From Podarcis vaucheri (taxonomy: Eukaryota): a stretch of 64,000 nt of DNA. The position numbers and the translations under genes were made by a program. Shown in pieces: positions 4,038-60,724 of the stretch. Numbering within the stretch: position 1 is the stretch's first letter; each line of letters opens with the position of its first letter. Location: NCBI GenBank assembly GCA_965113315.1, contig OZ220371.1; one strand, given 5' to 3'. The notes beneath the pieces are model-generated. The model ran no database searches. It saw only the letters and a program-made list of their open reading frames with translations, and was not told the DNA's origin.

Positions 4038-4254
4038 GTGGTTTTGCCTATCCCACCTCAGGAGTGATACCTTACCTCTTCCTAATTATATGGGAAAAGA
4101 CCCACAGAGTCGCCCCCACCCATATGACAGTATTATCGCAGCACCTAGCCGTATAGGATCCAGTCAAGGAAAAGCTGCTCTCATGTGGTTGGGGCTTCAT
4201 CTAAAGGGCACCTGGAACAGTTGGTAGAACAAAGTGTTGAGGAGTATATCTTAC

Positions 4255-4772
4255 CGAATGAAACCTTTCGGAGGCATAATATTTCCTTCAACGTCCAAAG
4301 GAGGAGCTCGGCACTCACTCCTCAGTTTGAGTTGATCACATCGTTTCATTTCATTCTTTGTTCGGGTCAGAACTCTCTCTTTATGTCTCCGATCCACAAA
4401 CAGTGCGTCCCCTTCAATGAACTTAACGTAGGTGTTCCCATCCAACTGCGAAGGAGGTGGGACTGGTGGCACAGCCATGAATCCTTTCCTGGGAGCAGTG
4501 ATCCATCGCCAGGTGTTGCTATCAAAAGGCTTATCCGGTCTTGGGCGATAGATTGCTGGCAACCTCCCTACATCCAGCCATGTATGGTATCCCCAGACGT
4601 GCCATAGGCTATCCTCTTCCACTGGGCAGCGTATTTTGTGGCTGACACTTATTTTGGCATCTGTGTGGGGTGGTCTTTCAACAGCCAGTTTATGGTAGGG
4701 TCTTGGAGAAAACCCTGGCCATGACACATATTTGTCTGCACAGAGGAAGTGCCTCTCTTTCCATGTGGTCAT
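4255..4772 (-). CDS. TEX52: TEX52 main coding exon
   Basis: Motifs WPGFSPRPYHKLA, WGYHTWLDVGRLPA, PDKPFDSNTWRW and LKLRSECRAPPLDVEGNIMPP match TEX52. Donor CG|gtaag at 4254; acceptor ttcaag immediately before 4772, so an upstream exon is possible. Same position next to FOXM1 as in mammals. Confidence 0.88.
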
Positions 4773-7700
4773 CTTGAACAGGAATTCAGATTAACCCTAG
4801 GCAGGGGGAAAGAAGGCCGTTCAGAGACATCAGAAGCCCCAGTATTGGCCTACAAGATGATGCCCTGCTGCAATACCCAGATTCAGTTTGTTGAAGATCC
4901 TAAGGCATAAGAAATGTAAAATACCCATCGTAACATAGTCCTACCTATGGAATCCTGCTTCCACATGTCCCAGTCCCATGTTCTCTTCCTTCAATCCTTG
5001 GCAACCATATAAGACAACAGTTGCAGCTAACAAGGAGATCTACGATTTAGGAATCCTTTACAAGAAAAACACTTTGCTACCCTTTCCTGCATTTCATTTG
5101 CTGTCTCCCCAACAGTCAATGTTCAGATTGTAAGCTCTAGGGAGCAGGAGTCTAGCGTTTTTCATTTATGACTCTGTTTAGTGCTGTCACAAAATGCATC
5201 TGCTCCTGGTGAGTGTTCTCTCTCCTCAACAAAGATGAAGTGTGTGTGATCATTTACTGTGCATAGGCCAAGAAACCGAGAATAAGGCATCCCATAAAAT
5301 GGGGAACAGCTGCTTCCTCTGCCTCCTTGTCTATTTTCCAGTTGCGATTCTGTGAAGAGCACAGAGAGATGAGCAGGAAGGCTGCACAGATAGCAAGCTA
5401 TTTGATAATAATCTCAGCCACAATATTTACATTTTTTTAAAAGAGTTTAATGAAGAGGCTAACTATTACAATGCTGACAGAGAAAGATGAAGAAAAGTTT
5501 AAACATATCTCTAACTCATTATGGAGCTGCAGGAATAGTGCAGACATTAAGAGGAACGGAAGCTGAGGAGTTACCAGCCACTGTGCATGCTCACCACGAA
5601 TGATGGAAAATGTGCACCTCATTATTCTACAAAGAGGGACTTGTGCAAATTTCCCAGTCGGTATACAGAATCCAGGGGCAAAACTAGGCTTTATTTCACC
5701 CGGGTTAAAGATCCAATCTGGCACCTTCCCACATGCAATTGAGTCCACACACAGAGTGGGAAGCCTCTGGAGGCTTCGCCTGGGGCAAAGAACCTGGCTA
5801 TCACCCCGGTAGTTGCAGCACTGCATAATCTCCAACAGGCTTTGGAAAATGTGCACATGTTGACTGAATTTTGTACATTCCTGACCATTCTGATCCCCAG
5901 CAGGTTTTGGGGAATGTGCATTTCCTTCACTTTGTCCCTGCCAAGGACACATAATAAGGCTTGTCATACCTTACAGTGGCAAACTCGCTGTCCTTCCCAC
6001 AGCAGGAACGCAGAGCAAAAGAGGCACATGAACTGCCACCTGAGACTCCTGTATATCTTGGAACATAACATTTCCAGAGAGATATCAAAGCAAGTATTGT
6101 GTCACCTTGAAGACTAAGCAATTCATTATGGCCATAGCTTTCCTGGATTCAATCCCATGTCATCAGCAGTTGAGAGGTATATAAAGAAGTCGAGAGAAAA
6201 CATTTAAGTGATAATCAGAGCTTAAATATATGCTAAAAAGGCACATCTTTCACTGTACCAGATTGGTGATAATTTACTCAGCATTACTAAAATGATTATA
6301 TTAACAGAGAACCATTCAAAAGGAACATTGGCAGCAGATTTATCCTGGAATTGGTCAGCTCATTAGCATGTGCAGTGTGGTGAAAATGATGGAAAGGCTT
6401 TGTCTCTAACTCTTGTCAGGCAGGGGTGGCAACTTGAATAAAATATTGCGGGGGGGGGGCAGGTAAGCTCCACCCTGCAGAATTGGTGACATGACATGGC
6501 AGACACACACCATTTTTATGGCAATGCACATCAACTGGGGGGGGGGGCTGGCTCCCTCAAATATTAGCTCCTATGGGGACAGCACTGAACTTTTTGGTGA
6601 ATTGAAATTCATCTGTTTCATGTTGTAATCTTCCTTTGAATGGTCACCTTAAGGTCAGTTACGGAAGATCCCAATAGGCTGAATTGTTCTCCCACTGATT
6701 TATGGTTATTGCCATTTTTTATTTCACATTTGTTCATTTATTCTTTTGTACGGAAACTGACCAGTTGCCCTGAGTACAATTGTAGAATGCAGTAGAATGC
6801 ATTGTACATTGAATCTGTGTAGAATGCAGAAGGGAATTGGTGGCAGATGATGGGATAAATGATACTGGAAGATGAGCAGGTGATTTCGATTGGTTTTATA
6901 CCATGGTCTTCCCCCCAAATAACTGTAGTTTAGTGAGGGTGCTGAGAACATTCACCTTGAGATTCTTTGCTCTCTTTCCCAAGTCTCCCTGGGAAGATGA
7001 AGTGTCTGGAATACACCAGTTTAAGTCTATGCTGAATGTGACCAAATTACTGAGCTCCTCAGGCAGATGTTCCCTATGCTATGCTGCCATTGAGATGGGA
7101 AAAATCACATTTGCCCCTGGAGAAGATGCCGGGGATTTGCTTGCCTTTATTCTTCCTAAGGGCTCCTTTTCCTTCTGTCTGCAGCTGTGTTCTATTCCAT
7201 TGTGTGCTTTGATGTTTCCAAGCTGGCTTCCTGGCTCACACATGCGTGATAAATTCCCACAGCAACTAGTTGTGATGTCATGTGCCAGGAACTGTGACTT
7301 CAGGCAAAGTTTGAAGGTGACGGTGGCATATAGAAGGAAATTAAGAAAACAACCCAGGCTCTTGATGAACAGCTTCTGCTTCTGAATGAATGGCTTGGTG
7401 ATCCTAAAATCCTCATAGGAATTGTTGAGAAAAATCCATAGGAAGGAAAATCAATCTCTAAGAATAGAGGAATGGGGACACCAATTCACAAAGGCTAATG
7501 CTGGCCCCTTGCAGACTCATGAAAGATGCTAAGGAAACACACTGCTCAGAATCACACTTTCTACTCTGGCTTTATTGCATAGGTTGTTAGAAGAAACACA
7601 AACACAGAATGTGGCTGAAGTACTTCTATGCAGGGGTTATTGATTCATTTATTTTTTAAGGCCAGACAAATCACATTTCACACAATTGCTTTCATTTCTT

Positions 7701-9133: not shown

Positions 9134-10192
9134 TCATTTCCGTTCAGGAATTAACTGTGACCAACTGAGATCAGTACCCAAGTTGTCATCCTCAAGGCCA
9201 GAAAAACTGACATCTAGTAGGATTTTGCTCAAACTGTCATTCATGGTGTCCAGGACTAGGCCTTCCAAGAATGAATGGTTTTCAGGAAGAGCAGAGGCCT
9301 GAAGCTCTGGTGACGACTGTTTGCTGGTTGCAGGAGAGCTGGTCAAGGGCCCAGAGACCATGTCATTGGTTTCTGCATTTAGGAGTGGCAGCTGTGGAGC
9401 ATCACATAACGATGGCCTTAAGGGAGTGCTGCCAAGTCCCAGGATGTCCAAGTTCCCCTGAAGGGATATTAATGAGGTTGGAGGGGTTCTCACAGGACTG
9501 CAAAGCAGACCACTAGTTTCCTTGACAAAAGGTGCCAATCTCCAGGGGTCAGTAGTTGCCAGGAATGGTGCTGGCGTGGTTATGGGGGCTTTACTAGGTA
9601 CGGAAGAAATGGGCAGCTTGCAGAACATCTCTTTTATTGCAGATTTAAAAGGAATGACTTCTCCCTGAGAAGATGTACTTTCCAGAGGATGCGTATCCGT
9701 TGCAAAGGGAGGGTCATTTCCCACCGTGCATGACTCTGACCTACTGGTGGGTTGCAGGAGGAGGACTGGTTCTTCAGAGGAAGGCAGGGCTAAGTGCTGT
9801 TTCCTTCTGGATCTGCCCATTACTTGCCTCTCTTGTCTCTTTATAACCAGTGTGTCCAACTTGCTCCGGGATGGTGACTTGAGAGCTGTAAATGGTCTCT
9901 TCTGCTTTGCAGGTGGGGCTGGAAGGACTATGTCTGGTGGTTCACCCAGTTGCTCTGGCTCTGCCTTTGTAGACGCTGTGGGGAGGAACTGAGGGGCCCA
10001 TGTGTTGGAATGAAAGTTGTCACTCTCCTCTTTTATATGCAGGGCTGGGGCGAATGATTCTTTGCTGATCCAACAGGCGTCCTGCTTTATGGACTGCTGG
10101 GATGTAAATGGAGATAGCTCTCCGTCACAAGTCTCCTCCTTGATGGGGATGGGAGCTGGGAGCAGGGTTGCCTCTTCACTGGACAGCAACAC
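9134..10192 (-). CDS. FOXM1: FOXM1 last coding exon (transactivation domain)
   Basis: Acceptor tattgcag|GTG. Contains RSRRKQHL and EGLVLDTMNDSLSKILLDVSFSGL...SWSQLIPE; TGA at 9134. Confidence 0.95.
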   Translation of the reverse strand: MLLSSEEATLLPAPIPIKEETCDGELSPFTSQQSIKQDACWISKESFAPALHIKEESDNFHSNTWAPQFLPTASTKAEPEQLGEPPDIVLPAPPAKQKRPFTALKSPSRSKLDTLVIKRQERQVMGRSRRKQHLALPSSEEPVLLLQPTSRSESCTVGNDPPFATDTHPLESTSSQGEVIPFKSAIKEMFCKLPISSVPSKAPITTPAPFLATTDPWRLAPFVKETSGLLCSPVRTPPTSLISLQGNLDILGLGSTPLRPSLCDAPQLPLLNAETNDMVSGPLTSSPATSKQSSPELQASALPENHSFLEGLVLDTMNDSLSKILLDVSFSGLEDDNLGTDLSWSQLIPERK

Positions 10193-11735: not shown

Positions 11736-11905
11736 CTTTGGAGCAATGCACACGGGTTTGCTGCTCTGCATGGTCTCTGAGACACCCTGGGATGCAGGAA
11801 GAGGCATCTTTGAAGAAGGTTGAAGGATGACGGACTGACTCAAAGGAAAGTGAATTGGAACTAGGTAGGAGTTGACACGTGGCAGCAAGGGCTTCATTTT
11901 TCGGC
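11736..11905 (-). CDS. FOXM1: FOXM1 coding exon 7
   Basis: RKMKPLLPRVNSYLVPIHFP...IAPK; AG/GT boundaries, phases consistent. Confidence 0.93.
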
Positions 11906-13348: not shown

Positions 13349-13427
13349 GTGCAGTCTGTGGCTCACTTTTACGACCGCTAGTGCCTCCCATACTCTTCTG
13401 TAGATCTGGAATGTGCCGTTTTTGCTG
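13349..13427 (-). CDS. FOXM1: FOXM1 coding exon 6
   Basis: tag|CAGCAA (NAGNAG acceptor) QQKRHIPDLQKSMGG...TA-R, donor C|gtgagt. Confidence 0.85.
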
Positions 13428-14374: not shown

Positions 14375-14419
14375 TGATTCCAAGAGCCCGGGTGATGCTG
14401 GTGACTGCACATCCAGTGG
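14375..14419 (-). CDS. FOXM1: FOXM1 45-nt exon (equivalent of alternative exon Va/A1)
   Basis: cag|CCACTGGAT...TTGGAATCA|gtaag encodes PLDVQSPASPGLLES, homologous to human PLDPGSPQLPEHLES. Confidence 0.85.
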
Positions 14420-15282: not shown

Positions 15283-16110
15283 CATAGAATCATGGCAGAG
15301 TTGGAAGGGACCCAAAGGATCACCGGGTCCTATCCTGCAATGCAGGAATCACAGCTAAAGAATTCCAGACAGATGGCCATCCAAGCTGTTTAAAAACCTT
15401 CAATAAAGGAGTCCACTACCTTCCAAGGTAGTCAGTTCCACTGTCAAACAGCTGTCAGATAGTTCTCCTGCACACATTCTAGCTTGTCATTATCCTTCTT
15501 AAATTGCCCAGAACTGGTTGAAGTATTCCTGGTGGGGTCTGACCAAGGCAGAATAGAGTGGGACTCTTCCTTCCCTTGATCTGGACACTAGACTTCTGTT
15601 GATGCAGCCTAGAACAGCATTAGCTCTTTGCTGCTGCATCATGCTGTTGAGTCATGCTTGTGGATCCTTTTCACATGGCAAACCAGTTGTCCCTGATCTT
15701 ATACTTGTGCATCTGGTTCTTCCTGCCTAAGTGCAGAACCTTTCATCTGTCCTATTGAAATTCATGTTGTTACTTTTGGCTCAGCTCTCCAATCTGTTAT
15801 CCTGATTCTGTCTTCCGCACCCAGTTTGGTGTCTTCTGCTAATTTGATAAACATGCCTTAAATTCCTTCATCCAAGTTGTATATAAAGATGGAGAACAAC
15901 AACGGGCTCAGGACAGAACCCTGTGGCACCCCATTTGTCACTTTTTTCCAGGATGATGAGGAAATATTGGTAAACACTCTTGGGGTTCGGTCAGTCAACC
16001 AGCTACAATTCCACCTAACAATAATCTTCTGCAGCCCAAATTTTACCAGCTTCTCTGCAAGAATTTCATGGAGGACTTGTGTCAAAAGGCTTACTGAAAT
16101 CAAAGTATGT
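15283..16110 (-). mobile_element. CR1 LINE 3' fragment
   Basis: RT motif [17 protein letters not shown] and the CR1 3' end (catagaatcat...gagttggaagggacc). Confidence 0.8.
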
Positions 16111-16464
16111 TAGCTCCACATCCTGTGGCCCTCTGGATACTCCTGGACTACAATTCCCATCATCCCTAACCGTTGGCCATGGGAGTTGAAGTCCAGCAAC
16201 ATTTGGAGGGCCACATGTTCCCCACACTTATCCAGACAATGAGATAGCATTCCTTAACCCTTTTAAAAGGTTTATAGCCACACCAGTACTTAAGACTTTC
16301 CTTTCTGTGAATTCAAGTGATCCATTTCCCTTCTAATACCAAACCTAGGTGATCCAATGCTCACCAGCATGTCTTCACCTGCCTCCTCAGAATGGAAATA
16401 GCCAGGTGCTTGAGAAATCAGGAATTGGTAGGGCAATCTCCTTTTCTGCATGAAAGGTACTTAC

Positions 16465-16593
16465 TTTGAAAACTCGGTCCAGTGTCAAATAGCGGTTGGC
16501 TTCAGGGTGAATGGTCCAGAATGAGATTTTGCCATTGGCAGATGTCTCTCGAACGAACATGTCATGAAGAGAAAGATTGTGCCTTACACAGCT
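16465..16593 (-). CDS. FOXM1: FOXM1 coding exon 4 (second half of forkhead domain)
   Basis: catccag|AGC TGT GTA AGG CAC...TTC AAA|gtaagt, 129 nt, encoding SCVRHNLSLHDMFVRETSANGKISFWTIHPEANRYLTLDRVFK. Confidence 0.95.
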
Positions 16594-18225
16594 CTGGATG
16601 GGAAAGGAGAAAAGCTTGCTGTTTTTTTGTTATCAGTGGATTCTTCAGATGAAATCTTGATAATTCACAAAGACCTTGGCTTTGAATCCTCTGTATCTAC
16701 AGGGGCTGTGCCCCTGCCACATTCCCCACTTTAACCCCCTAGGGCTTCCTCTTCCCGCCCCATGCAACTGCTGAGATCACTTTTCACCTTTCCAACCCAA
16801 TTTTCAAGCCACTTCTCTTCTGTAGCCCTACTTTGCACCCATTTTCACCTTTACCCCCATGTCCATGACTCCTCCTCCTCCTCCTTTTGTGCAAGCTCCT
16901 TTGCACACAAACCAGCCCCATGGCAACCTGATGCATCTTGCTCCTCCCACACATTGTACTACTAAGCACCCTTTTTGCCTTCTGCTCAATTTTGAAGTGA
17001 CCACCCCAATATTCTTCAGACCATTTCATGCCCCTGCTTTCATCTTCACTCCCATTCCTCCCTCTTTGCTCTCATATTTTCATCTCCACTCCCCTTTTCC
17101 GTTCACCCTCCTTACTTTTCTCAACTCTCCCTTGCACCGACCACCCCGCATTTCCATGCCTTATCCTCTCCCCTCTGGCACAGCCCCATCTGCCCACACT
17201 CCCCAATGCTGATATCTGTTACTGTACCTTTAAGACGAATGGCTTCTTAAGAGCAAGCCTTTGAGTTGGCTTGTTCAGTGGGAGAAGATTAAATTCAGTT
17301 GGTGAATGTTGTGTTTATATGGAACTTTGCTTGTTAATAAAATATCCCGTCTAAATTACTGTATTGAATCTGGAACTGGTACCAGGAGTGAAATACATTA
17401 TGTGAAGGTACTGTGACATATTTGAGGGCTCTGCATCTTTGATCTCTCTTGCACAAGGCAGTTGAGCAACAGGGCAAAGTTTAAAAGAGCCCTCGTTCAG
17501 TGCTTCTCCCTCCTTGCTTTATTCAGACAAGAAGTCTGAGTAAAGTTGAGAACTATTCCATTTAAGGTAACATCTGGTGATACGGGGGTTCTGTTTGTGG
17601 TGATTATTAAGTGGCGACTTCTTTCTATATGCAAACAGATGCTTGGTTTTGGAGTCAGGAACTGATGAGCATGCATGTCTGAACCAGGAGATTTTGCTTC
17701 CCAATTTAAGTAAGCTGTTTTGTGGTTCATTTCATATTCTGAATTCACTTCCATGGCCCCAAGGCCAGTTAATACTTATAGTCATCACTTCACGGCTGCA
17801 GTACAAATGGATGTTTTCCATATAAATGTGAACAATCCATCAGAAGTCAAGCAGCACATATAATATGCTGCAGTAAAGTCGCTTCACACAAACCACTGGA
17901 CCCACAAATGCTAAATGATCAAGTGATGCACACTGATGTGTGCCTTTCTTACATGCAATTGCTTCCACAATAATTTAGAACAGCGTAACACAGATGGCAG
18001 GTATATACACTCTCTCCCCCAGGAATTTGTGGGCAAGGCATTGTAAATATACAGTATGGCAAGAGACCATAAATGAGTGAATAGAACCTCACATGCATAC
18101 TAAAAACACCAGGCTCATCAAGATTGTTAATTTCTGCAATAATGCAATTCCACAAAGGGTTCACATCAATGCCTGTTCATATCAAACTGCTTTTCATCCT
18201 CGTTTCATTAGCTATGTGCATATGA

Positions 18226-19238: not shown

Positions 19239-19439
19239 CTTCCAGCCGGGCTTCGCTGCATGCTTGAAATAAGGGAAATGGTCCTCAATCCAGGTGTAGA
19301 TATCTTTCAGCATCATGCGCTTCTTCTCAGTGCTGTTGATGGCAAACTGGATCATGACCATATAGGAGTAGGGGGGACGTTCAGAGAAGGACTCCTGCCA
19401 TGAGGTCGTAGAGGAAGGCGCTGCAGAACCTTCCTTGGC
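19239..19439 (-). CDS. FOXM1: FOXM1 coding exon 3 (first half of forkhead domain)
   Basis: SWQESFSERPPYSYMVMIQFAINSTEKKRMMLKDIYTWIEDHFPYFKHAAKPGWK; boundaries tcag| and |gtag. Confidence 0.95.
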
Positions 19440-21285: not shown

Positions 21286-21419
21286 CTTAACAGCTTTCTG
21301 CTTGGGGGTCTGGTTCTCCTTCTCTGTCTCCTTTTTCACACTGCAAGGTTTCAGTCCACTATAGCCCATATTGCCCAGCCACAGAATGTTAGTCAGACTG
21401 TTGTCTGCCTCCGCACTGC
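21286..21419 (-). CDS. FOXM1: FOXM1 coding exon 2
   Basis: DNSLTNILWLGNM...KKETEKENQTPK (KEN box); ctag| and |gtaag, phase 1 to phase 0. Confidence 0.9.
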
Positions 21420-23472: not shown

Positions 23473-23863
23473 TGTTTTCTTCCGGTTCTCGTCCATCCAT
23501 AGACAGCAACTCTTCCATTAATGCAGAGCTTTGCCCAATGTGCTTTTCATCCTCTCCTGCCTTGTCGTGGGCAGTGCTGTGCTCCTCATCAGATTTGAAA
23601 AGATTCTTGAACTCTCTTCTCTCCACCTGGGCATCTGACAAGGTCGGGTGGTCTATTATCTTAATCCCCCCCACAGGCACTTCTCGATTTCCGGGTTCCG
23701 TTTTGTTTGTACCGTGCTCCTTAGGATTTGCTTCTTCCTGCTTAGGAGACCCAACATTCTGGCCACTTGGCTCATCTCCTGCTAAGGTGCTCGCAGCATC
23801 GCTATGTGGGAAAGACAGCTTCCGTCTCTTGAGAATCAGGGGCCTGTGAGGGCTGCTCTTCAT
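23473..23863 (-). CDS. FOXM1: FOXM1 first coding exon (N-terminal domain, shortened)
   Basis: ATG at 23863: MKSSPHRPLILKRRKL...GGIKIIDHPTLSDAQV. Donor A|gtatgt at 23472; exon acceptor at about 23910. Confidence 0.93.
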
Positions 23864-30699: not shown

Positions 30700-31340
30700 G
30701 TAGCACCACCACCACCAGCTGCGCCTTTCTGGGGCTCCTGGCCCCGGGGCGAGTTCGCGCAGGACTAGCGCCTTAACTGAAAGCGCCGTTGAGACGCCGA
30801 GCTTACGTCACCTTCGGCAGCGCCGCCTCGCTCGCTCGCTCGCTCCCGGCCGGGAATCTCCTCCTCGGGCTTCGCCGCTCGGCTCCGGGGCGGGAGAGGG
30901 ACCCCGTTCCTGGCTCCGGGGCGCCTGCCGGGGCGCGCGTCTTTGGCAAGCGCCGCCTGCCTCTTCGCCCCTCGCCCGGCTCCGCCGCCGCCGCCTTTTC
31001 CTTCGTCCGTCCCGGTTGTTTGAATTTGGCGCCCGGAGAGCTCGGTCCGCGTCACGTGACGCGCCGGGACCAATCGGCATCGGGGCAGAAGAAGAGCGGA
31101 GAACGTCAGGGTGCCTAGAGCGGGGGCGGGGCTTCGGCGGGCTGTGGGCGGAGACAAGGCCGCGCTCCGGAGCGGGGGCTTCGGCGGGATCCCTCCGAGA
31201 TCGCGGTGCGTCTGGCGGCGCTGCCCCCAAGCGGGGGGGCGGCCCTCGGGGAGGGGGCCGCGGCAGGACCCTCTAAGGAGGCTGCGGGCCACATGCTCAG
31301 CCGAAACAAGGAAAGGGGCCGGGAGAGATCAGGGGGTTTG
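30700..31340. promoter_or_regulatory. CpG-island bidirectional promoter of FOXM1 and RHNO1
   Basis: Very GC/CpG-rich and lies between the divergent genes. CHR TTTGAA (31019-31024) abuts an E2F-type TTTGGCGC (31025-31032); palindromic E-box GTCACGTGAC (31051-31060); CCAAT (31070-31074); GC boxes at about 31122-31150. Confidence 0.85.
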
Positions 31341-31347
31341 GGCTGGG

Positions 31348-32438
31348 TGGCCATCAATATACGCAGTGGCGTAGCGGGGGGGGTGCAGGGGGGGCGGGCT
31401 GCACCGGGCGCAACATCTGGGGGTTAGGATTAGGGGGCGCAAATCCACGGGTTAGGGGGCGCAAATTACTTGCCTTGCCCCGGGTGCTGACAACCCACGC
31501 TACGCCACTGAATATACGGATGGTACCCAGCTCTACCTCTCTTTCAAATCAGAACCAGTGAAGGTGGTGAAGGTCCTATGTGAGTGCCTGGAGGCAGTTG
31601 GAGGATGGATGGTGGCAACCAGATTGAGGTTGAATCCTGACAAGACAGAAGTTCTGTTCTTGGGGGACAGGGGGCGGGCTGGTGTGGAGGACTCCCTGGT
31701 CCTGAATGGGGTAACTGCCCCTGAAGGACCAGGTGCGCAGCCTGGGAGTCATTTTGGACTCACAGCTGTCCATGGAGGCGCAGGTCAATTCTGTATCCAG
31801 GGCAGCTGTTTACCAGCTCCATCTGGTACGCAGGCTGAGACCCTATCTGACCACGGACTGTCTTGCCAGAGTGGTGCATGCTCTGGTTATCTCCCGCTTG
31901 GACTACTGCAGTGCGCTCTGTGTGGGGCTACCTTTGAAGGTGACACGGAAACTGCAATTAATCCAGAATGCAGCAGCTAGACTGGTGACTGGGAGCGGGC
32001 GCCGAGACCATATAACACTGGTCTTGAAAGACTTAAATTGGCTCCCAGTACGTTTCCGAGCACAATTTAAGGTGTTGGTGCTGACCTTTAAAGCCCTAAA
32101 CGGCCTTGGTCCTGTATACCTGAAGGAGTGTCTCCACCCCCATCATTCTGCCCGTACACTGAGGTCCAGTGCCGAGGGCCTTCTGGCGGTTCCCTCATTG
32201 CGAAAAGCAAAGCTACAGGGAACCAGGCAGAGAGCTTTCTTGGTGGTGGTGCCCACCCTGTGGAATGCCCTCCCATCAGATGTCAAAGAGAAAAATAACT
32301 ACCAGACTTTTAGAAGACATCTGAAGGCAGCCCTGTTTAGGGAAGCTTTTAATGTTTAATAGGTTATTGTATTTTAGTGTTTTGTTGGAAGCCGCTGACT
32401 GGGGGGACTCAGCCAGATGGGTGGGGTATAAATAATAA

Positions 32439-32904: not shown

Positions 32905-33069
32905 ATGCCTCCAAAGAGGAGGCGTCTGAGCAAAGGATGGAAAGGAGAGCTCTTGTTCACTGAGGCCCCCAAAGAGGGGCTTGTGTACCCCTATGGGACG
33001 CCACTTCATCCAGGGAGCAGTCCAAGATGTGTACCCACCAAACCAGTAAATCAGATTGGGAGTACTTGG
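32905..33069 (+). CDS. RHNO1: RHNO1 first coding exon
   Basis: MPPKRRR...LLFTEAPKEG...RCVPTKPV...TW|gtatgg matches the RHINO N-terminus; head-to-head with FOXM1. Confidence 0.88.
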
Positions 33070-34151
33070 GTATGGTCTTCTTGTCTTTTCCTTTATATTG
33101 TGGGGATGTACTGTTAATGCACAACTGCAGCGCTTGCTTGGTGTCCTCACTGTTTTCTGTGCTCTATGTTCAAAAGCTCACTATCCTGCCCTTGCCTTGC
33201 AAAATAAGACCACAAGTTATTCTTCTTCTTTTTTTTAAAGCTTGCCTGCCCATATTTCCTTGGAAAACCCAGCTCTTGTTAATTATTCTTATCTCTCTTT
33301 ACCTGTACAACTATCGCTTTAGATTATTTTGGCCTACAAAATAGTTTAAAACTGTTCATACCCCCAAATTCTCTTTCAGTCCTGGAGACAGTTATTTCAG
33401 TGGAATTCTGTTTTTTTATGGTGCTGTGGGACACTGATTTTGTAACTGTCTTTCTGGAAATTGCCAACAGAAGACAAGGAAGAGCTCAGCTTGCAGCTAT
33501 GAAACCATTACGGTGCTTATTTTGCTCATAATTCTGGCAGTTTGGTGCCTTACTTCTCTTCATGAGAGGGAAATAATAAATAAAATAATAAGGTAACAAT
33601 TGCATGCACATTTACTTGGATGTAACCTCTTGAACCCAGTGAGTCGTACTTTTGAGAAAATACGCATAGGATAACTGTAAATCACATGCATGAGATTTGG
33701 TTTTGTTTTTTAAAATCTGGATATTTAGAAAATGAATATAAATACAATATAATGTTTGCACAACCCTTTCTAGCAATTTCCAAAGAGGGTTTGGCTATCA
33801 ATGAGAAAATGGTATCGGTCATCGGAGCTGATAAGCCAATCCCTACCTCTGCCCACTTATTAATGGCTCCACTCTTGTACTTCCATCTTGTGACTGAGTA
33901 ATTCTTAGTCTTCTTACATGGGCCCTGGGGGTAGAAGGTTTCGAAACCCTTGATTTAGAATATGCATAGCAAAGGGTTAAATGAAGCATTTATCCATCAT
34001 CTGCTAATTTCTTACACTGCCTTCAACTGTAATATGGGGATAATACAGACTTCTGTTGCAGAACTATTGCAAAGATTACTAAGAGTGTACATTAAGGTAT
34101 TTGAAATAGGGATGCTTGTGTTAGCTTATTATTATTGCTTATTTTTCTCAG

Positions 34152-34823
34152 ATAATTCCACAGTTTGAGAGTGCCAGATCACTGGGTCTCCAGAGGTGGT
34201 GCCACGGTTCCCCAAACGTGAAAATAAAGGATACCAACCATGCCATCCCTGTGGTGGCAGGAAGGCGTTGGAGGCCTGCAGCCTACAAGTTTTCTCCACT
34301 AATGTTTGAGAATGCAAAAACAGAATCCTGTGCTGTGGGGACTTCACAACACCCTTTGGACTTTGGTGGACAAGCAGGAAACTTTGAGACATGCTGTAAC
34401 CAGCCAAGGGCTCTTTCTACTCCAGCTTCCGTCAGCCCTACAAGCAATTCTAGGGCTGGGATGGAAAATCTTTGTCCCTGCCCCTTATCTCCTTATGCTG
34501 ACCCAGTTGCATTCAGCCCCCCAGAGAGATGCACTCCAGAACAGCCCTCCGTTGAGGCCCATAATTATTGTCTGCCCCAAATGGATAGCTTTACTCCTGG
34601 CCCATTTAGTAATCAAGTTGGTGAGGATATTTCTAATGACTTTGAGGCTACATCTGTGCTGGTCAAGGACACTCCTGAGGACGAATATGGAGTTAAGGTA
34701 ACATGGCGGAGTCGATCTCTCTTAATGAAATACCTCAGAGAAAAAGGAATGCTGAGCACCAGGGACGTCTTAGTGAAGACACAAATGAGTCCAGTGCTTA
34801 GTGGGGCTGAAGATAGCCAATAG
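34152..34823 (+). CDS. RHNO1: RHNO1 second coding exon
   Basis: ttctcag|ATAATTCCACAGTTT completes W-IIPQF. Also KFSPLMFE and VLVKDTPEDEYGVKVTWR...YLREKGML. TAG at 34823; about 278 aa in total. Confidence 0.9.
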   Translation: MIPQFESARSLGLQRWCHGSPNVKIKDTNHAIPVVAGRRWRPAAYKFSPLMFENAKTESCAVGTSQHPLDFGGQAGNFETCCNQPRALSTPASVSPTSNSRAGMENLCPCPLSPYADPVAFSPPERCTPEQPSVEAHNYCLPQMDSFTPGPFSNQVGEDISNDFEATSVLVKDTPEDEYGVKVTWRSRSLLMKYLREKGMLSTRDVLVKTQMSPVLSGAEDSQ

Positions 34824-38465: not shown

Positions 38466-39288
38466 CAAAAGTGTCCAGAAGACAATGAACACAATGAAAT
38501 TTATTGAGCATTTATTCAAAATCCATTAAAAATATTTATTTTTATTCCATTCTCTTCCAGTTCTTCTTGACATGTGGAGTTACACAGGGAGTAGATCATA
38601 TATCCTAAGGAACGGAAAAACCCAAGATTCCGTGAGATCTTTTGAGGCAAAATAATGTTAACAATTTTCGGATCTCTCTCTGTCCCCTGCCCTGTCCTGT
38701 CTTTTGCCAAAACAGAGGTGTCAACCCTGTGCCCAGACAGAAAGGCCCACCCCCCTCAGCCTCCCTGAGGTGGTCCAGAGGAAAGAAGAGCAAGGCACAA
38801 GACACCAGCTGGGCTGCAGGAGTTGCCAGAAGGAGGCCTACAAAATGCCACTCAACCATCTTAGGGACTCCACTCTTCTCCCAAAGCCATCCTACGAGGC
38901 AGCGGAGGTTTAGAATCAGAGTTCTCCTCGACGGGCTCCTCCCTTCCGGGGGGATGAGCCCCATCGGCCCCTCACTTCCCTCTACGGCACGTGCACAAAC
39001 AGCTCCCTCTGGATCTCGTCCACTCCATCTGCCGGAGCCTGTCTTCTGACACAGGGGAAAGTCCCTCACTCACTGAGGGTTTGAGACCCATTGGCTCCCC
39101 TCCCCTGGTTCCCCGGCCTCTTCTCCCTCTGACTGCTTCTCCTTGTCCCCCCTCCACTCCCTGGGCTCTGAGACGTCTTCCCTTTCTGGTTGTCCAGCTG
39201 CTTCCTCCCACCATTCTTCTGTGCCCAACCAGTCCATGAGATTGTTCCACCCCTTGGCCTCTGTCCCCACAAGGCAGCTTGCCCCTAC

Positions 39289-41639
39289 CTGATCTGGTCC
39301 CACAGCCACTGCGTCCCTTCTGCCCCCATGAAAAGATGGAGAAGGAGGTCTTGCCGGCATCATTCTGTCACCTGCAAGAGAAAAAAGGTAAGCAGGATGC
39401 CAGGAGTGCCTGCTTCTCTCACAGATGAAATAGGGCATCTCTAACTACAGATGGGCTTCTGAGAAAGTCTTACCTGCTGAGTGCATTTGGCGTCCAGTGG
39501 AGCCCGAGGTCCGCACTACCTATAAATCTTCAATGATGGTGTCATCTAGATGGAAGAGAATGAGAATGAAAATGAAAATGAGATTTTCCAACAGGCCTTT
39601 AGTCAAAGGGTGCTGTCTCCAAGGTGTGGGGCTTATCTTCTTTCGGCTTCAGGCGGAAGCAAGCCAGGTCCGGCCAAACTACTGTCATCTGCAGAGGAAA
39701 GAAAAATCGGGGTCAGATGGGAGCAAGAGAGCACAGAAGCAGCGCCAAGCCAGGAAGGACGGATCTCCCTCTGTCTTGGGCCCAATCCCTTGTTCCAGAG
39801 GACCTCCCTGGGCCCTGTAGCCTCCTGGGCAGAGGTGGAAGGGCAGCAGCAGGAAAGGGGGCAGGAAAAGCCTCTAGCCTCATCCTGGCCCCCAGGAACA
39901 CACACCACATCATTTGCCTTAAAGATCATTTGGGGATGTGATCTTGGGGGGATGGAAGTAACCAAAGAAATGAATAGAAGAAGGCAAGGTACTTACTCTG
40001 AGGTTGGGGAATTTCCGGGCAACGGCCAGCAGCAAGGAAATGCTGCTGGCCGCTAGTTCTTGAGCTTCCCCACTTTCCCCCAGGGCATATCCTCAGAGGT
40101 CCTGCAGGAGGAAAGAGCGTCTCAGAGTCAGGGGCCAGTCTGGGCCAAAGCGGGCCCCCCACTGCCCCCACCACGGAGTCCCTGGCACTTCTGCACCATG
40201 AGGTTTTGCCAGCTTTTGTCTTGGGCCAAATTGGGGGCCAAACAGGCTCTGTGCCCCAGAAATGGGGCAGACCGTTGGGTAAGGGATGGGAGGGACAACC
40301 CTAAAACCACCCCGATGCCATCGGGACACTTACACTGAGAAGCTGGAGGAGGGTGGCAGGGTTGGGGGCTTCCATAAGGAGACTCCCCAGCAGGAGCCGG
40401 AAGTGCCTCTTCAGTTCCTGCGGGAAAAGAGAGAAGAGAGTGTGAATGCTGGGTTGGATTCTGCAAGTGTGTGACAAAGAAGAAGAAAGAGCCTGTGAAG
40501 GGAAGTCAAAACAAAGGACATACTTCTCTCTCCTCCTCCTCCTCCTTGGCCCCTTTCAGCACGGCCTCCAAGGTCCTGTGCAGGATTGCACTGATCATAT
40601 CACAGCTGACTTTGGGCCTCATGGTGCTGCAGAGATGAAAGGGAGAGGGTTAGGGTCTCCCTTGCCCCCTTCTCCCTCCTGCCTGCTCCCTAGAGTTCTG
40701 CCCCCCACCCACAACCCCATCCACGCCAAAGACCCCACTCACCTTAGCTGGAGGAGGGCCTCCAAGGCAAGGGCCAGGGGGCGATCCCTGAAGTGCTCCA
40801 GGGGCCCCAATATGTCCTAGAAGAGAATAGAGGAGGAAAATCAGCTCCGACCCCAAACACCAGGCTTGGCTTTGCATGGGAATGACAACCCCATGCCCTA
40901 AGCCGCAGGGTCCTCCTCTCCGCAGATGCACAACCCCTTCCCCCCACACCCCCCATCGCTCACCAGAATGGCTTGGGCTGTCTCCTGCTTGGAGCACTTC
41001 AGGGATCGGAGCCCCCTGAGCTCAGCTGCCTGGCAGCTCTGGATGACCCCCAGGAGGTAGATCTGTTCATCCTCCAGCAGCTGAAATGGAAAAGTCAGGC
41101 TGTCAGTTCCTCGTGAGGGGAGGGCTTCTCCGCATTTGAGAGTGCAGAGTGGGGGGGCAAAGAGCCCGGGCAGCGGGGGGCAGGTCTGAGGGATCCAGTC
41201 CCTGCTCTTGTTTTCTCCAATACTCACCCCTGGGGCTGGGATGCGGAACCGCAGCAGAACTGCAAACAGAAGGACATGGGGACAGGTGAGTCCGTCCCTG
41301 AGCACCTGGCAAAGCTATTCCAAGAGTTCTCTCCTGGATTCCAAGTCCTACTACAGGGATGGGACACCCCAGGCCTTGGGGGCCAGTCCTGGCCTCCTTT
41401 CCCCAGAATGTGGCTCCCCAGGGAAGGTGCCCCTCCCCCTGACAACTGCCACCCAGCCATGCCCCGCAGCCCAGCTCCCTGCTTCCTTCACTGGACCCCA
41501 CAAAACAGGTTGGCCCATTCCTGCCCTCCTCTGTTCGAAAAAGGAGGGCCGCTTCCTCACCTGGCGCCACGGGCTGCTGTGGGTCTGCTGGGAGGCCACA
41601 CTGTGGCAGCGTCTGAACAGGCACCTTAAGCACCTGATC
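39289..41639 (-). pseudogene. Multi-exon MROH (maestro HEAT-like repeat)-like pseudogene fragment
   Basis: Phase-compatible AG/GT exons: 41228-41347, 40964-41080, 40743-40816, 40524-40626 (STMRPKVSCDMISAILHRTLEAVL), 40334-40417 (ELKRHFRLLLGSLLMEAPNPATLLQLLS) and 39997-40101 (AQELAASSISLLLAVARKFP). These resemble sauropsid MROH7-like proteins. In-frame stops at 41315-41317 and 40093-40095. Confidence 0.6.
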
Positions 41640-42356
41640 CTAGAAGAGATGAGAGGAGAGAGCGACTCAGATGCCGGCAGCCCCAATTCTTGGGGGGGGG
41701 TTGTGTGTGAGGAGGGGCATCTGGAGAAAACAGTGAACCTTCCGAATTGGCAGAACAGAAATACATATGTGGAGCCTAATTGATCTTTGCCAGCCCATCA
41801 TGACCAATTCCTTCCATCTCTCTGCAGTTCAGTGACCTGAAGGGGCATCATCAGAGCCTGAAAGAGGCAGCCCAGAGCATGAAGGGCTGGCAAAGAGAGA
41901 AAGGAGGTCCCAAGTGGTCTGGGTTCAAGAGCTATGGCCATGCCAGGACCCAGAGAGCCTGGCCCTCCATTCATGCAGTCAAGCAGTGTATAAATTTCAT
42001 GAATCAAATGAAAAAAACAGGGAGAGGGGAGAGCTTTGGGTCATTCTTAACATTGTTACCGGAATTTTTGGAAAGGGTGGCGGGGGGTTTCCCCCTCCAG
42101 AAGGCACCATACCCCCCCTGACTGTACCCCAAATCAACACCTTCACTTCTGCAGATGTCCCCACAAAACACATCCTGACACAGTCCTTTCCTTTTTCTAT
42201 TCCAAAGGCTCCCATAAATAAGGGTAGAACATTTGCCCTAATGAAGGCTGAGCCTTTCGCTCACAAGGCACTCAACCAATCCGCTCAGGCTATCCAAAGA
42301 ACTGTCCAATAACAACCAGTGAGCGCCACGAAACAGCAGTCTGTCTAGAACAAAGC

Positions 42357-42540
42357 ACTGAGGGCACAAAGAGAAGGGGATGACAGAGAACGAGATGGTT
42401 GGACAGTGTTCTCAAAGCTACCAACATGAGTTGGACCAAACTGCAGGTGGCAGTGGAAGACAGGAGTGCCTGGTGTGCTCTGGTCCATGGGGTCATGAAG
42501 AGTCGGACACGACTAAACGACTAAACAACAACAACAACAG
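42357..42540 (+). mobile_element. RTE-BovB 3' end
   Basis: Same family as 25440; ends gagtcggacacgactaaacgactaaacaacaac. Confidence 0.8.
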
Positions 42541-59895: not shown

Positions 59896-60650
59896 TTATT
59901 ATTTATACCCCGCCCATCTGGCTGGGCTTCCCCAGCCACTCTGGGCGGCTTCCAAAATAATATTAAAATACTGTGATACATCAAACATTAAAAGCTTCTG
60001 TAAACAGGGCTGCCTTCAGATGTCTTCTAAAAGTCTGGTACTTGTTGTTCTCTTTGACATCTGGTGGGAGGGCGTTCCACAGGAAGGGCGCCACTACTGA
60101 GAAGGCCCTCTGCCTGGTTCCCTGTAACTTGGCTTCTCGCAGTGAGGTAACTGCCAGAAGGCCCTCGGTGCTGGACCTCAGTGTCCGGGTAGAACGATGG
60201 GGGTGGAGACGCTATTTCAGGTATACTGGACCGAGGCCGTTTAGGGCTTTCAAGGTCAGCACCAACACTTTGAATTGTGCTCGGAAACGTACTGGGAGCC
60301 AATGTAGGTCTTTCAAGACCGGTGTTATGTGGTCTCGGCGGCCGCTCCCAGTCACCAGTCTAGCTGCCGCATTCTGGATTAGTTGCAGTTTCTGGGTCTC
60401 CTTCAAAGGTAGCCCCACATAGAGCGCATTGCAGTAGTCCAAGCGGGAGATAACCAGAGCATGCACCACTCTGGCAAGACAGTCCATGGTCAGATAGGGT
60501 CTCAGCCTGCGTACCAGATGGAGCTGGTAAACAGCTGCCCTGGACACAGATTTAACCTGTGTCTCCATGGACAGCTGTGAGTCCAAAATGACTCCCAGGC
60601 TGCGCACCTGGTCCTTCAGGGGCACAGTTACCCCATTCAGGACCAGGGAA
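59856..60650 (-). mobile_element. L2 LINE 3' fragment
   Basis: Peptide almost identical to the L2 at 31.5-32.4 kb; (TAA)n tail at 59856-59895. Confidence 0.85.
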
Positions 60651-60724
60651 TCATCCTTGAAATAATCCTTCTTGTTTCAAGGTTGCATTTTTATATTGTT
60701 GGAACCTCCCCTCGGACTGCGTGG

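Follow-up and report, generated by a model that had tools for sequence, protein, structure and literature searches.

An unbroken FOXM1 gene in a wall-lizard lineage lacks the core of the autoinhibitory domain and the DNA-contacting asparagine of helix 3

FOXM1 is a driver of mitotic genes and a cancer target, and its autoinhibition and its contact with DNA are both treated as core features of the protein. The autoinhibitory domain (NRD) of the human protein folds with the activation domain through core residues that include V76, I78, I84, I87, I88, L91, F106, and L108, and mutations in its beta2, helix, or beta3 elements lead to higher activity in cells (PMC6538375). In the forkhead domain, Asn283 of helix 3 is hydrogen-bonded twice to A(i+2), and the consensus is preferred only 3-4-fold over random DNA (PMC2910063). 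The N283A mutation weakens the Kd from 1.1 uM to >5 uM, and R286A and S290A abolish binding (PMC4492089). At the following position, the corresponding residue of FOXO1 and FOXA2 contacts the DNA backbone (PMC8501956). It is a matter of debate whether FOXM1 reaches its promoters by binding them directly, through MuvB tethering, or in both ways, and its recruitment to chromatin in human cells required a functional DNA-binding domain (PMC4492089); an interaction of LIN9/MuvB with the N-terminal domain has been reported (PMC10439915).

Forkhead proteins differ in the sites that they read, and FOXM1 is bispecific, recognizing both FKH and FHL sites (bioRxiv 2025.05.27.656303; PMC7062188). In the latter work, yeast Fhl1 is described as FHL-specific with Ser at the position of the helix-3 Asn, and this Ser is presumed by the authors to contact the guanine of FHL rather than the adenine of FKH. 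The same source reports that Ser318 of FOXN1, the next residue, packs on base 3 of FHL, and gives a PDGW loop as the mark of FHL-specific proteins (PMC7062188). For FOXH1, a distinct motif has been cited (bioRxiv 2025.05.27.656303).

The window, by which we mean the whole analysed stretch of 64,000 nucleotides, carries FOXM1 of a Podarcis-like lacertid on its minus strand, with RHNO1 as the neighbouring gene. Eight coding exons running from 23863 to 9134 (-) encode a product of 735 aa with no internal stop and a single terminal one. All seven introns are of the GT-AG type, and no frameshift, premature stop, or splice loss was found across the 8 coding exons and 7 introns. Both forkhead exons had FOXM1 as their top PDB match (E 1e-30 and 7e-23), the next FOX protein following at 4e-11 and 6e-6. 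When the genome was searched with each forkhead exon, one FOXM1 match per exon was recovered and the next-best locus was 54% identical; no second copy was found among the top-scoring candidates of these exon searches, and the window gene is the sole detected FOXM1 orthologue of this lizard genome. Exact look-up of five open reading frames of the window in the protein collection retrieved none of them (0/5). Human residue numbers used below were verified on an ape protein (P0094).

The reading that drew attention to the locus, made from the sequence alone, had claimed that the codons AGC TGT GTA follow the splice acceptor of the second forkhead exon (16465..16593, minus strand). This is what we found: minus-strand positions 16593-16585 read S-C-V, in place of human N283, S284, and I285, immediately preceded by a CAG acceptor and followed by RHNLSLHDMF, and the upstream forkhead exon (19239..19439, minus strand), which encodes the first half of the domain, ends in GWK|GT. 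Transcripts using another acceptor might have restored NSI. No such acceptor was found, as the other AG dinucleotides at distances of up to 62 nt either shift the frame or add LFSFPIQ before the same S-C-V, and intron 4, inspected for a duplicate helix-3 exon, contains no NS[IV]R. The RHNLS sequence after S-C-V is intact, so that the Arg, His, and downstream Ser of helix 3 (R286, H287, and S290) are kept. The loop before helix 3 reads AAKPGW, and the PDGW motif is absent. Two further substitutions in the second forkhead exon and its partner are Q322R (16474-16476) and V>A (19257-19259).

The three altered residues did not prove equal. N>S and S>C are common to four further DNA runs, described below, whereas I>V occurs in the window alone. 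Val also occupies the third position in 27 of 236 helix-3 motifs of FOX proteins, and I>V was consequently dropped as part of the signal. The near-invariance of the Asn was borne out, since N is present in 235 of the 236 helix-3 motifs obtained from 297 stored proteins, and the residue after it is Ser in 232 of them. Among 120 FOXM1 matches, 91 contain the helix-3 exon junction, and these read NSI in 87 cases and NSV in 4; the remaining 29 consist of fragments, isoforms that skip the exon, and read-throughs into the intron. Two oddities had also been pointed out in the preceding exon. The Val of YMVMIQ (A243V, 19356-19358) is indeed unusual, with Ala at this position in 120/120 FOXM1 matches. 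KRMMLKD, however, is present in 30/120 matches, every lacertid included, and was rejected as a lineage change because it is ordinary for squamates.

Within the same genome, the best 30 forkhead loci all read N-S (30/30). Eleven weaker loci were more varied: N in four, N-T in one FOXR-like locus, D in three FOXH1-like loci, S in one frameshifted FOXD-like locus, a degenerate WKDSI in one, and no motif in one. The FOXD-like locus (L042, G000:C31:66149400-66150400) is a pseudogene that reads WQSSIRH, with Ser at the position of the helix-3 Asn. Four FOXH1-like exons with WKDS[IV]RH lie in tandem within about 61 kb (L037-L040, G000:C27:93.93-93.99 Mb), and a degenerate FOXH1-like copy, interrupted by a stop, lies elsewhere (L041, on C29); we take L037-L041 to be FOXH1 from their WKDSIRH motif. 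Among stored proteins, one FOXM1-like entry (P0182) reads WKNCIRNNLS, with S>C and H>N, and has the NRD; judged by its sequence it may be a further instance of helix-3 erosion. Several annotated FOXM1 isoforms (P0001, P0002, P0007, P0030, P0090, and P0091) join GWK to QQKR and skip the helix-3 exon, in P. muralis, P. raffonei, Thamnophis, and Erethizon. Because these isoforms skip that exon, FOXM1 without a complete DNA-binding domain is predicted even in species with an intact gene.

A larger change than that in helix 3, overlooked by the sequence-only reading, lies in the first coding exon (exon 2; 23473..23863, minus strand, ATG at 23863). A 123-nt deletion with its junction at 23624/23623 removes, in frame, residues 81-121 of the P. 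lilfordi protein, and with them the equivalents of all eight human core residues from V76 to L108 named above. In the AlphaFold (AF2) model of intact P. lilfordi FOXM1, which has a mean pLDDT of 46 and values of 66-82 over residues 61-110, this region forms a strand (78-83), a helix (89-102), and a second strand (110-115). Placed on this model, the deletion removes half of beta2, the helix, and beta3 of the NRD. All 35 columns of the NRD core are absent from the window protein (35/35), against 0-7 in 42 other tetrapod proteins, one per species. The NRD helix and strand are also missing from 3 of 133 database FOXM1 models that have an N-terminus (P0064, P0066, and P0115; database models only), and no protein with a matching exon-2 deletion was recognised among the lacertid matches.

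The remaining exons carry changes of a lesser extent. The next coding exon (21286..21419, minus strand) has a 15-nt in-frame deletion at 21405/21406 and an SS>GY replacement, and keeps the KEN motif. Its conserved LTNIQWL, at 21375-21395 (-), reads LTNILWL by a Q>L change with the hydrophobic positions kept; this motif resembles the LXXLXWL motif reported for FOXN3. Downstream of the forkhead exons follow, all on the minus strand, an unchanged 45-nt coding exon (14375..14419, PLDVQSPASPGLLES), a 79-nt exon (13349..13427), and a 170-nt exon (11736..11905) with an unchanged conserved RRKMKPLLPRVNSYLVPI block. The last coding exon (9134..10192, minus strand, stop at 9134-9136) has a 12-nt in-frame deletion near 9670 and has lost an invariant S-P site by S>A near 9397. 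The activation-domain core EGLVLDTMNDSLSKILL (EGLVLDTMNDSLSKILLDVSF) is intact from 9265, and beyond it P>S and L>R changes are found near the C-terminus.

A comparison with related lizards, which had been proposed as a check, was made on contigs from 4 of 24 listed runs of one study: X2 (organism B), X3 and X5 (organism A), and X6 (organism C). In each run a single contig spanned the helix-3 exon, at 88% likeness, and the sole exonic difference from the window was 16587 C>T. It follows that all four runs carry N>S, S>C, and Q322R, and read SCI. Contigs over the first coding exon matched the span of the window within 0-19 gap letters, which indicates that the 123-nt deletion is common to all four as well. 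The 12-nt deletion of the last exon is common to X2, X5, and X6 by contig span and ambiguous in X3, and the 15-nt deletion of the second coding exon is private to the window. FOXM1 is intact in P. muralis, P. raffonei, P. lilfordi, Lacerta, and Zootoca. Divergence between runs and window was 1.2-1.8% over the contigs listed, which on sequence grounds would correspond to millions of years. The NRD deletion arose, like N>S, S>C, and Q>R, before the five genomes separated. Around the helix-3 exon (16040-17133) the contigs diverge from the window by 0.2-0.8%, in comparison with 0.6-1.2% for other exon-bearing contigs. A sweep or introgression could be behind this low value, which is biased because the runs were picked for their similarity there.

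We then examined how selection has acted on the gene, taking as conserved those columns with at least 90% conservation in 37 other tetrapods. Substitutions private to the window fell on conserved columns in 9 of 26 cases, as opposed to 1 of 74 in the five lacertids (p=1.4e-5), and the forkhead domain alone had 6 conserved-column substitutions against 0 in those lacertids. Since conserved columns make up 24% of the total, the window substitutions do not avoid them (9/26, binomial p=0.25), which shows that purifying selection is relaxed. The relaxation of constraint concerns the N-terminal half, which has 16 private changes in 285 residues versus 10 in 450 for the C-terminal half (p=0.02). Conserved columns were changed at 1/63 in the C-terminal half and 8/113 in the N-terminal half (p=0.16), a non-significant difference that is at most suggestive of constraint on the former. 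Between the window and X2, dN/dS over three exons was 0.48-0.63, with 13 non-synonymous and 9 synonymous differences, and did not fall significantly below 1 (p=0.07-0.19). Coding deletions were in frame in 3/3 cases, against 0/11 of the non-coding indels among those listed (12 of 59 indel rows; p=0.003). The coding differences listed for the four runs, 22 in number, include no stop, and the probability of having no stop by chance under neutrality is about 0.25. The helix-3 change is therefore not isolated, as it is accompanied by deletion of the NRD core and by relaxed selection on the N-terminal half.

RHNO1 lies head-to-head with FOXM1 at 32905..34820 (+), with exons at 32905-33072 and about 34152-34820, and served both as a marker of synteny and as a control of rate, a weak one because it evolves fast. 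Its private changes over 218 columns numbered 6 in the window and 3, 5, 3, 9, and 6 in the others. RHNO1 is not clearly accelerated, as far as so fast-evolving a control can tell, and a locus-wide acceleration is unsupported. Between the two genes, a GC-rich stretch at 31019..31074 (+) contains TTTGAA, TTTGGCGC, CACGTG, and CCAAT, and is likely to be a shared FOXM1/RHNO1 promoter. The TTTGAA sequence corresponds to the CHR consensus (PMC10439915), and we take the other three to be putative sites of the E2F, E-box, and CCAAT types. Downstream of FOXM1, DUF4532 exons are present at 1019-1369 and 4254-4790 (-), presumably belonging to TEX52. A GC-rich region at 38600-42500 (-) has several exon-like open frames with no Pfam match. 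A reverse-transcriptase fragment (RVT_1) is located at 15861-16109 (-) within a FOXM1 intron, and two retroelement-like open frames similar to it are found at 31715-32356 (+) and 60215-60676 (-).

What the altered helix 3 does to DNA binding can be predicted from human FOXM1. The sequence-only reading had proposed that direct binding is lost or changed in specificity. Loss of RYAAAYA readout is likely, judging from the two hydrogen bonds of Asn283 and the behaviour of N283A. Outright loss of binding, however, is not what the retained residues suggest: it is R286A and S290A that abolish binding, and since R286 and S290 are retained along with H287, the DNA binding of the lizard protein is probably weakened rather than lost.

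On the analogy with the human protein, we favour, with about even confidence, the reading in which window FOXM1 is a protein retained in frame and predicted to be a weakened, unbraked activator with little DNA sequence preference. With the NRD helix and beta3 gone, the activation domain would not be folded away and would stay exposed without release by Cdk/Plk1. With Asn283 gone, the weak 3-4-fold preference for TAAACA would be lost, and R286, H287, and S290 would retain some grip on DNA. These two losses would act oppositely on output and may offset each other, and residual function would keep the reading frame and the C-terminal motifs. The C-terminal changes (the lost invariant S-P site, P>S, and L>R) run counter to this, as does the need for a working DNA-binding domain in the recruitment of human FOXM1 (PMC4492089). 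The NRD deletion may also abolish tethering by LIN9/MuvB, since LIN9 is reported on the N-terminal domain, in which case nothing would be left to recruit the protein. Damage to both routes to chromatin, DNA and LIN9, would fit another reading, possible but rather unlikely in our judgment, that this clade can now do without FOXM1 and that the gene is a unitary pseudogene in the making, in neutral decay and with its frame still open by luck or shortness of time. Substitutions at least as frequent at conserved as at variable columns agree with such decay, as does its continuation at the tip (the private 15-nt deletion, I>V, and P>S) and the identical N>S in the frameshifted FOXD-like pseudogene of the same genome; homozygous zebrafish foxm1 mutants are also viable, although the mutant males are infertile (PMC10108034), a defect against which selection would be strong. 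Decay is harder to reconcile with three in-frame deletions out of three, with the lack of any stop or splice loss in the window and of any stop among the listed differences of the runs, and with the slower C-terminal half.

An adaptive repurposing was also considered, in which N>S would move the bispecific domain from RYAAAYA to FHL-type (GACGC/CATGC) sites and loss of the NRD would make the protein constitutive, with new targets. By analogy with Fhl1, the wall-lizard clade would then have rewired a G2/M master regulator into a kinase-independent activator of FHL-type sites through an Fhl1-like Asn-to-Ser change, a proposition that we consider doubtful. The Ser of FHL-specific Fhl1, the existing bispecificity of FOXM1, the occurrence of the NRD deletion and of N>S, S>C, and Q>R before the five-genome split, and the divergence of 0.2-0.8% near the helix-3 exon versus 1.2-1.8% over the contigs listed all speak for it. 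Yet the explanation offered for Fhl1 is a presumption of its authors (PMC7062188), the loop is KPGW and not PDGW, and the changes, instead of clustering, spread over helix 1, the linker, and the LTNIQWL motif. A single transition suffices, moreover, for N>S, which is found also in the dead forkhead L042, and the choice of runs biases the divergence near the exon downward. An assembly error, a rare allele, an alternative acceptor, or a hidden intact paralogue is very improbable and largely refuted: the SC codons and the deletion recur on single contigs of four samples that bear three species labels, no second copy was found among the top-scoring candidates of the genome, and no acceptor within 62 nt restores N. 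What can be said for such an artefact is that contigs can drop an allele, that all four runs come from one study, and that the NRD helix and strand are missing in 3/133 database models too. PMC12135187 and PMC9424243 added nothing decisive between these readings.

Whichever reading holds, wild lizards whose FOXM1 is without the NRD core and Asn283 constitute a natural experiment, for which close relatives with an intact gene provide the matched control. It implies that a vertebrate can live with a FOXM1 that is unbraked and sequence-blind, that the gene is dispensable, or that one residue can switch forkhead specificity. In the last case, the FHL rewiring would be a convergent specificity switch fixed inside a single vertebrate genus. 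That FOXM1 should be so altered is surprising given its embryonic requirement in the mouse, whose foxm1 mutants are described as having an embryonic phenotype (PMC10108034). A literature search conducted mostly on papers outside subscription, in their main texts, found no report of an NRD or helix-3 change of FOXM1 in Podarcis, lizards, or squamates, and no report of vertebrate FOXM1 loss was among the gene-loss literature matches listed.

Compared with the described systems, the lizard gene is an orthologue of FOXM1 in which two defining features, an intact NRD and the helix-3 Asn, are missing and which is nevertheless unbroken as a gene. With FOXM1 of other lacertids (P. lilfordi P0121, P. 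muralis, P. raffonei, Lacerta, and Zootoca) it shares the RHNO1 synteny, the KEN motif, R286, H287, and S290, and the activation-domain core. Its identity to these five proteins is 91.8-95.8% over aligned residues, highest with P. lilfordi, and the 95.8% between window and P. lilfordi is close to the 95.9% between P. lilfordi and Zootoca. It differs from vertebrate FOXM1, as represented by human structures (PDB 3G73 and 7FJ2) and the five lacertids, in being without the NRD core and in having six forkhead substitutions where the five lacertids have none. The residues affected are the same as in the engineered human NRD-interface mutants (PMC6538375) and N283A (PMC4492089), which separately gave raised activity and weaker binding; the lizard has both changes together, naturally and in the germ line of a clade, with Ser instead of Ala and with S284C in addition. 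Yeast Fhl1 is described as having Ser at the same position (PMC7062188), but belongs to another subfamily, and window FOXM1 is without the PDGW loop. The FOXH1-like forkheads with WKDSIRH, of which the genome has four such exons with Asp, likewise show a natural replacement of the helix-3 Asn; there, however, the residue is Asp rather than Ser, and the replacement is an old trait of a subfamily, whereas that of the wall-lizard FOXM1 is a recent change inside one genus.
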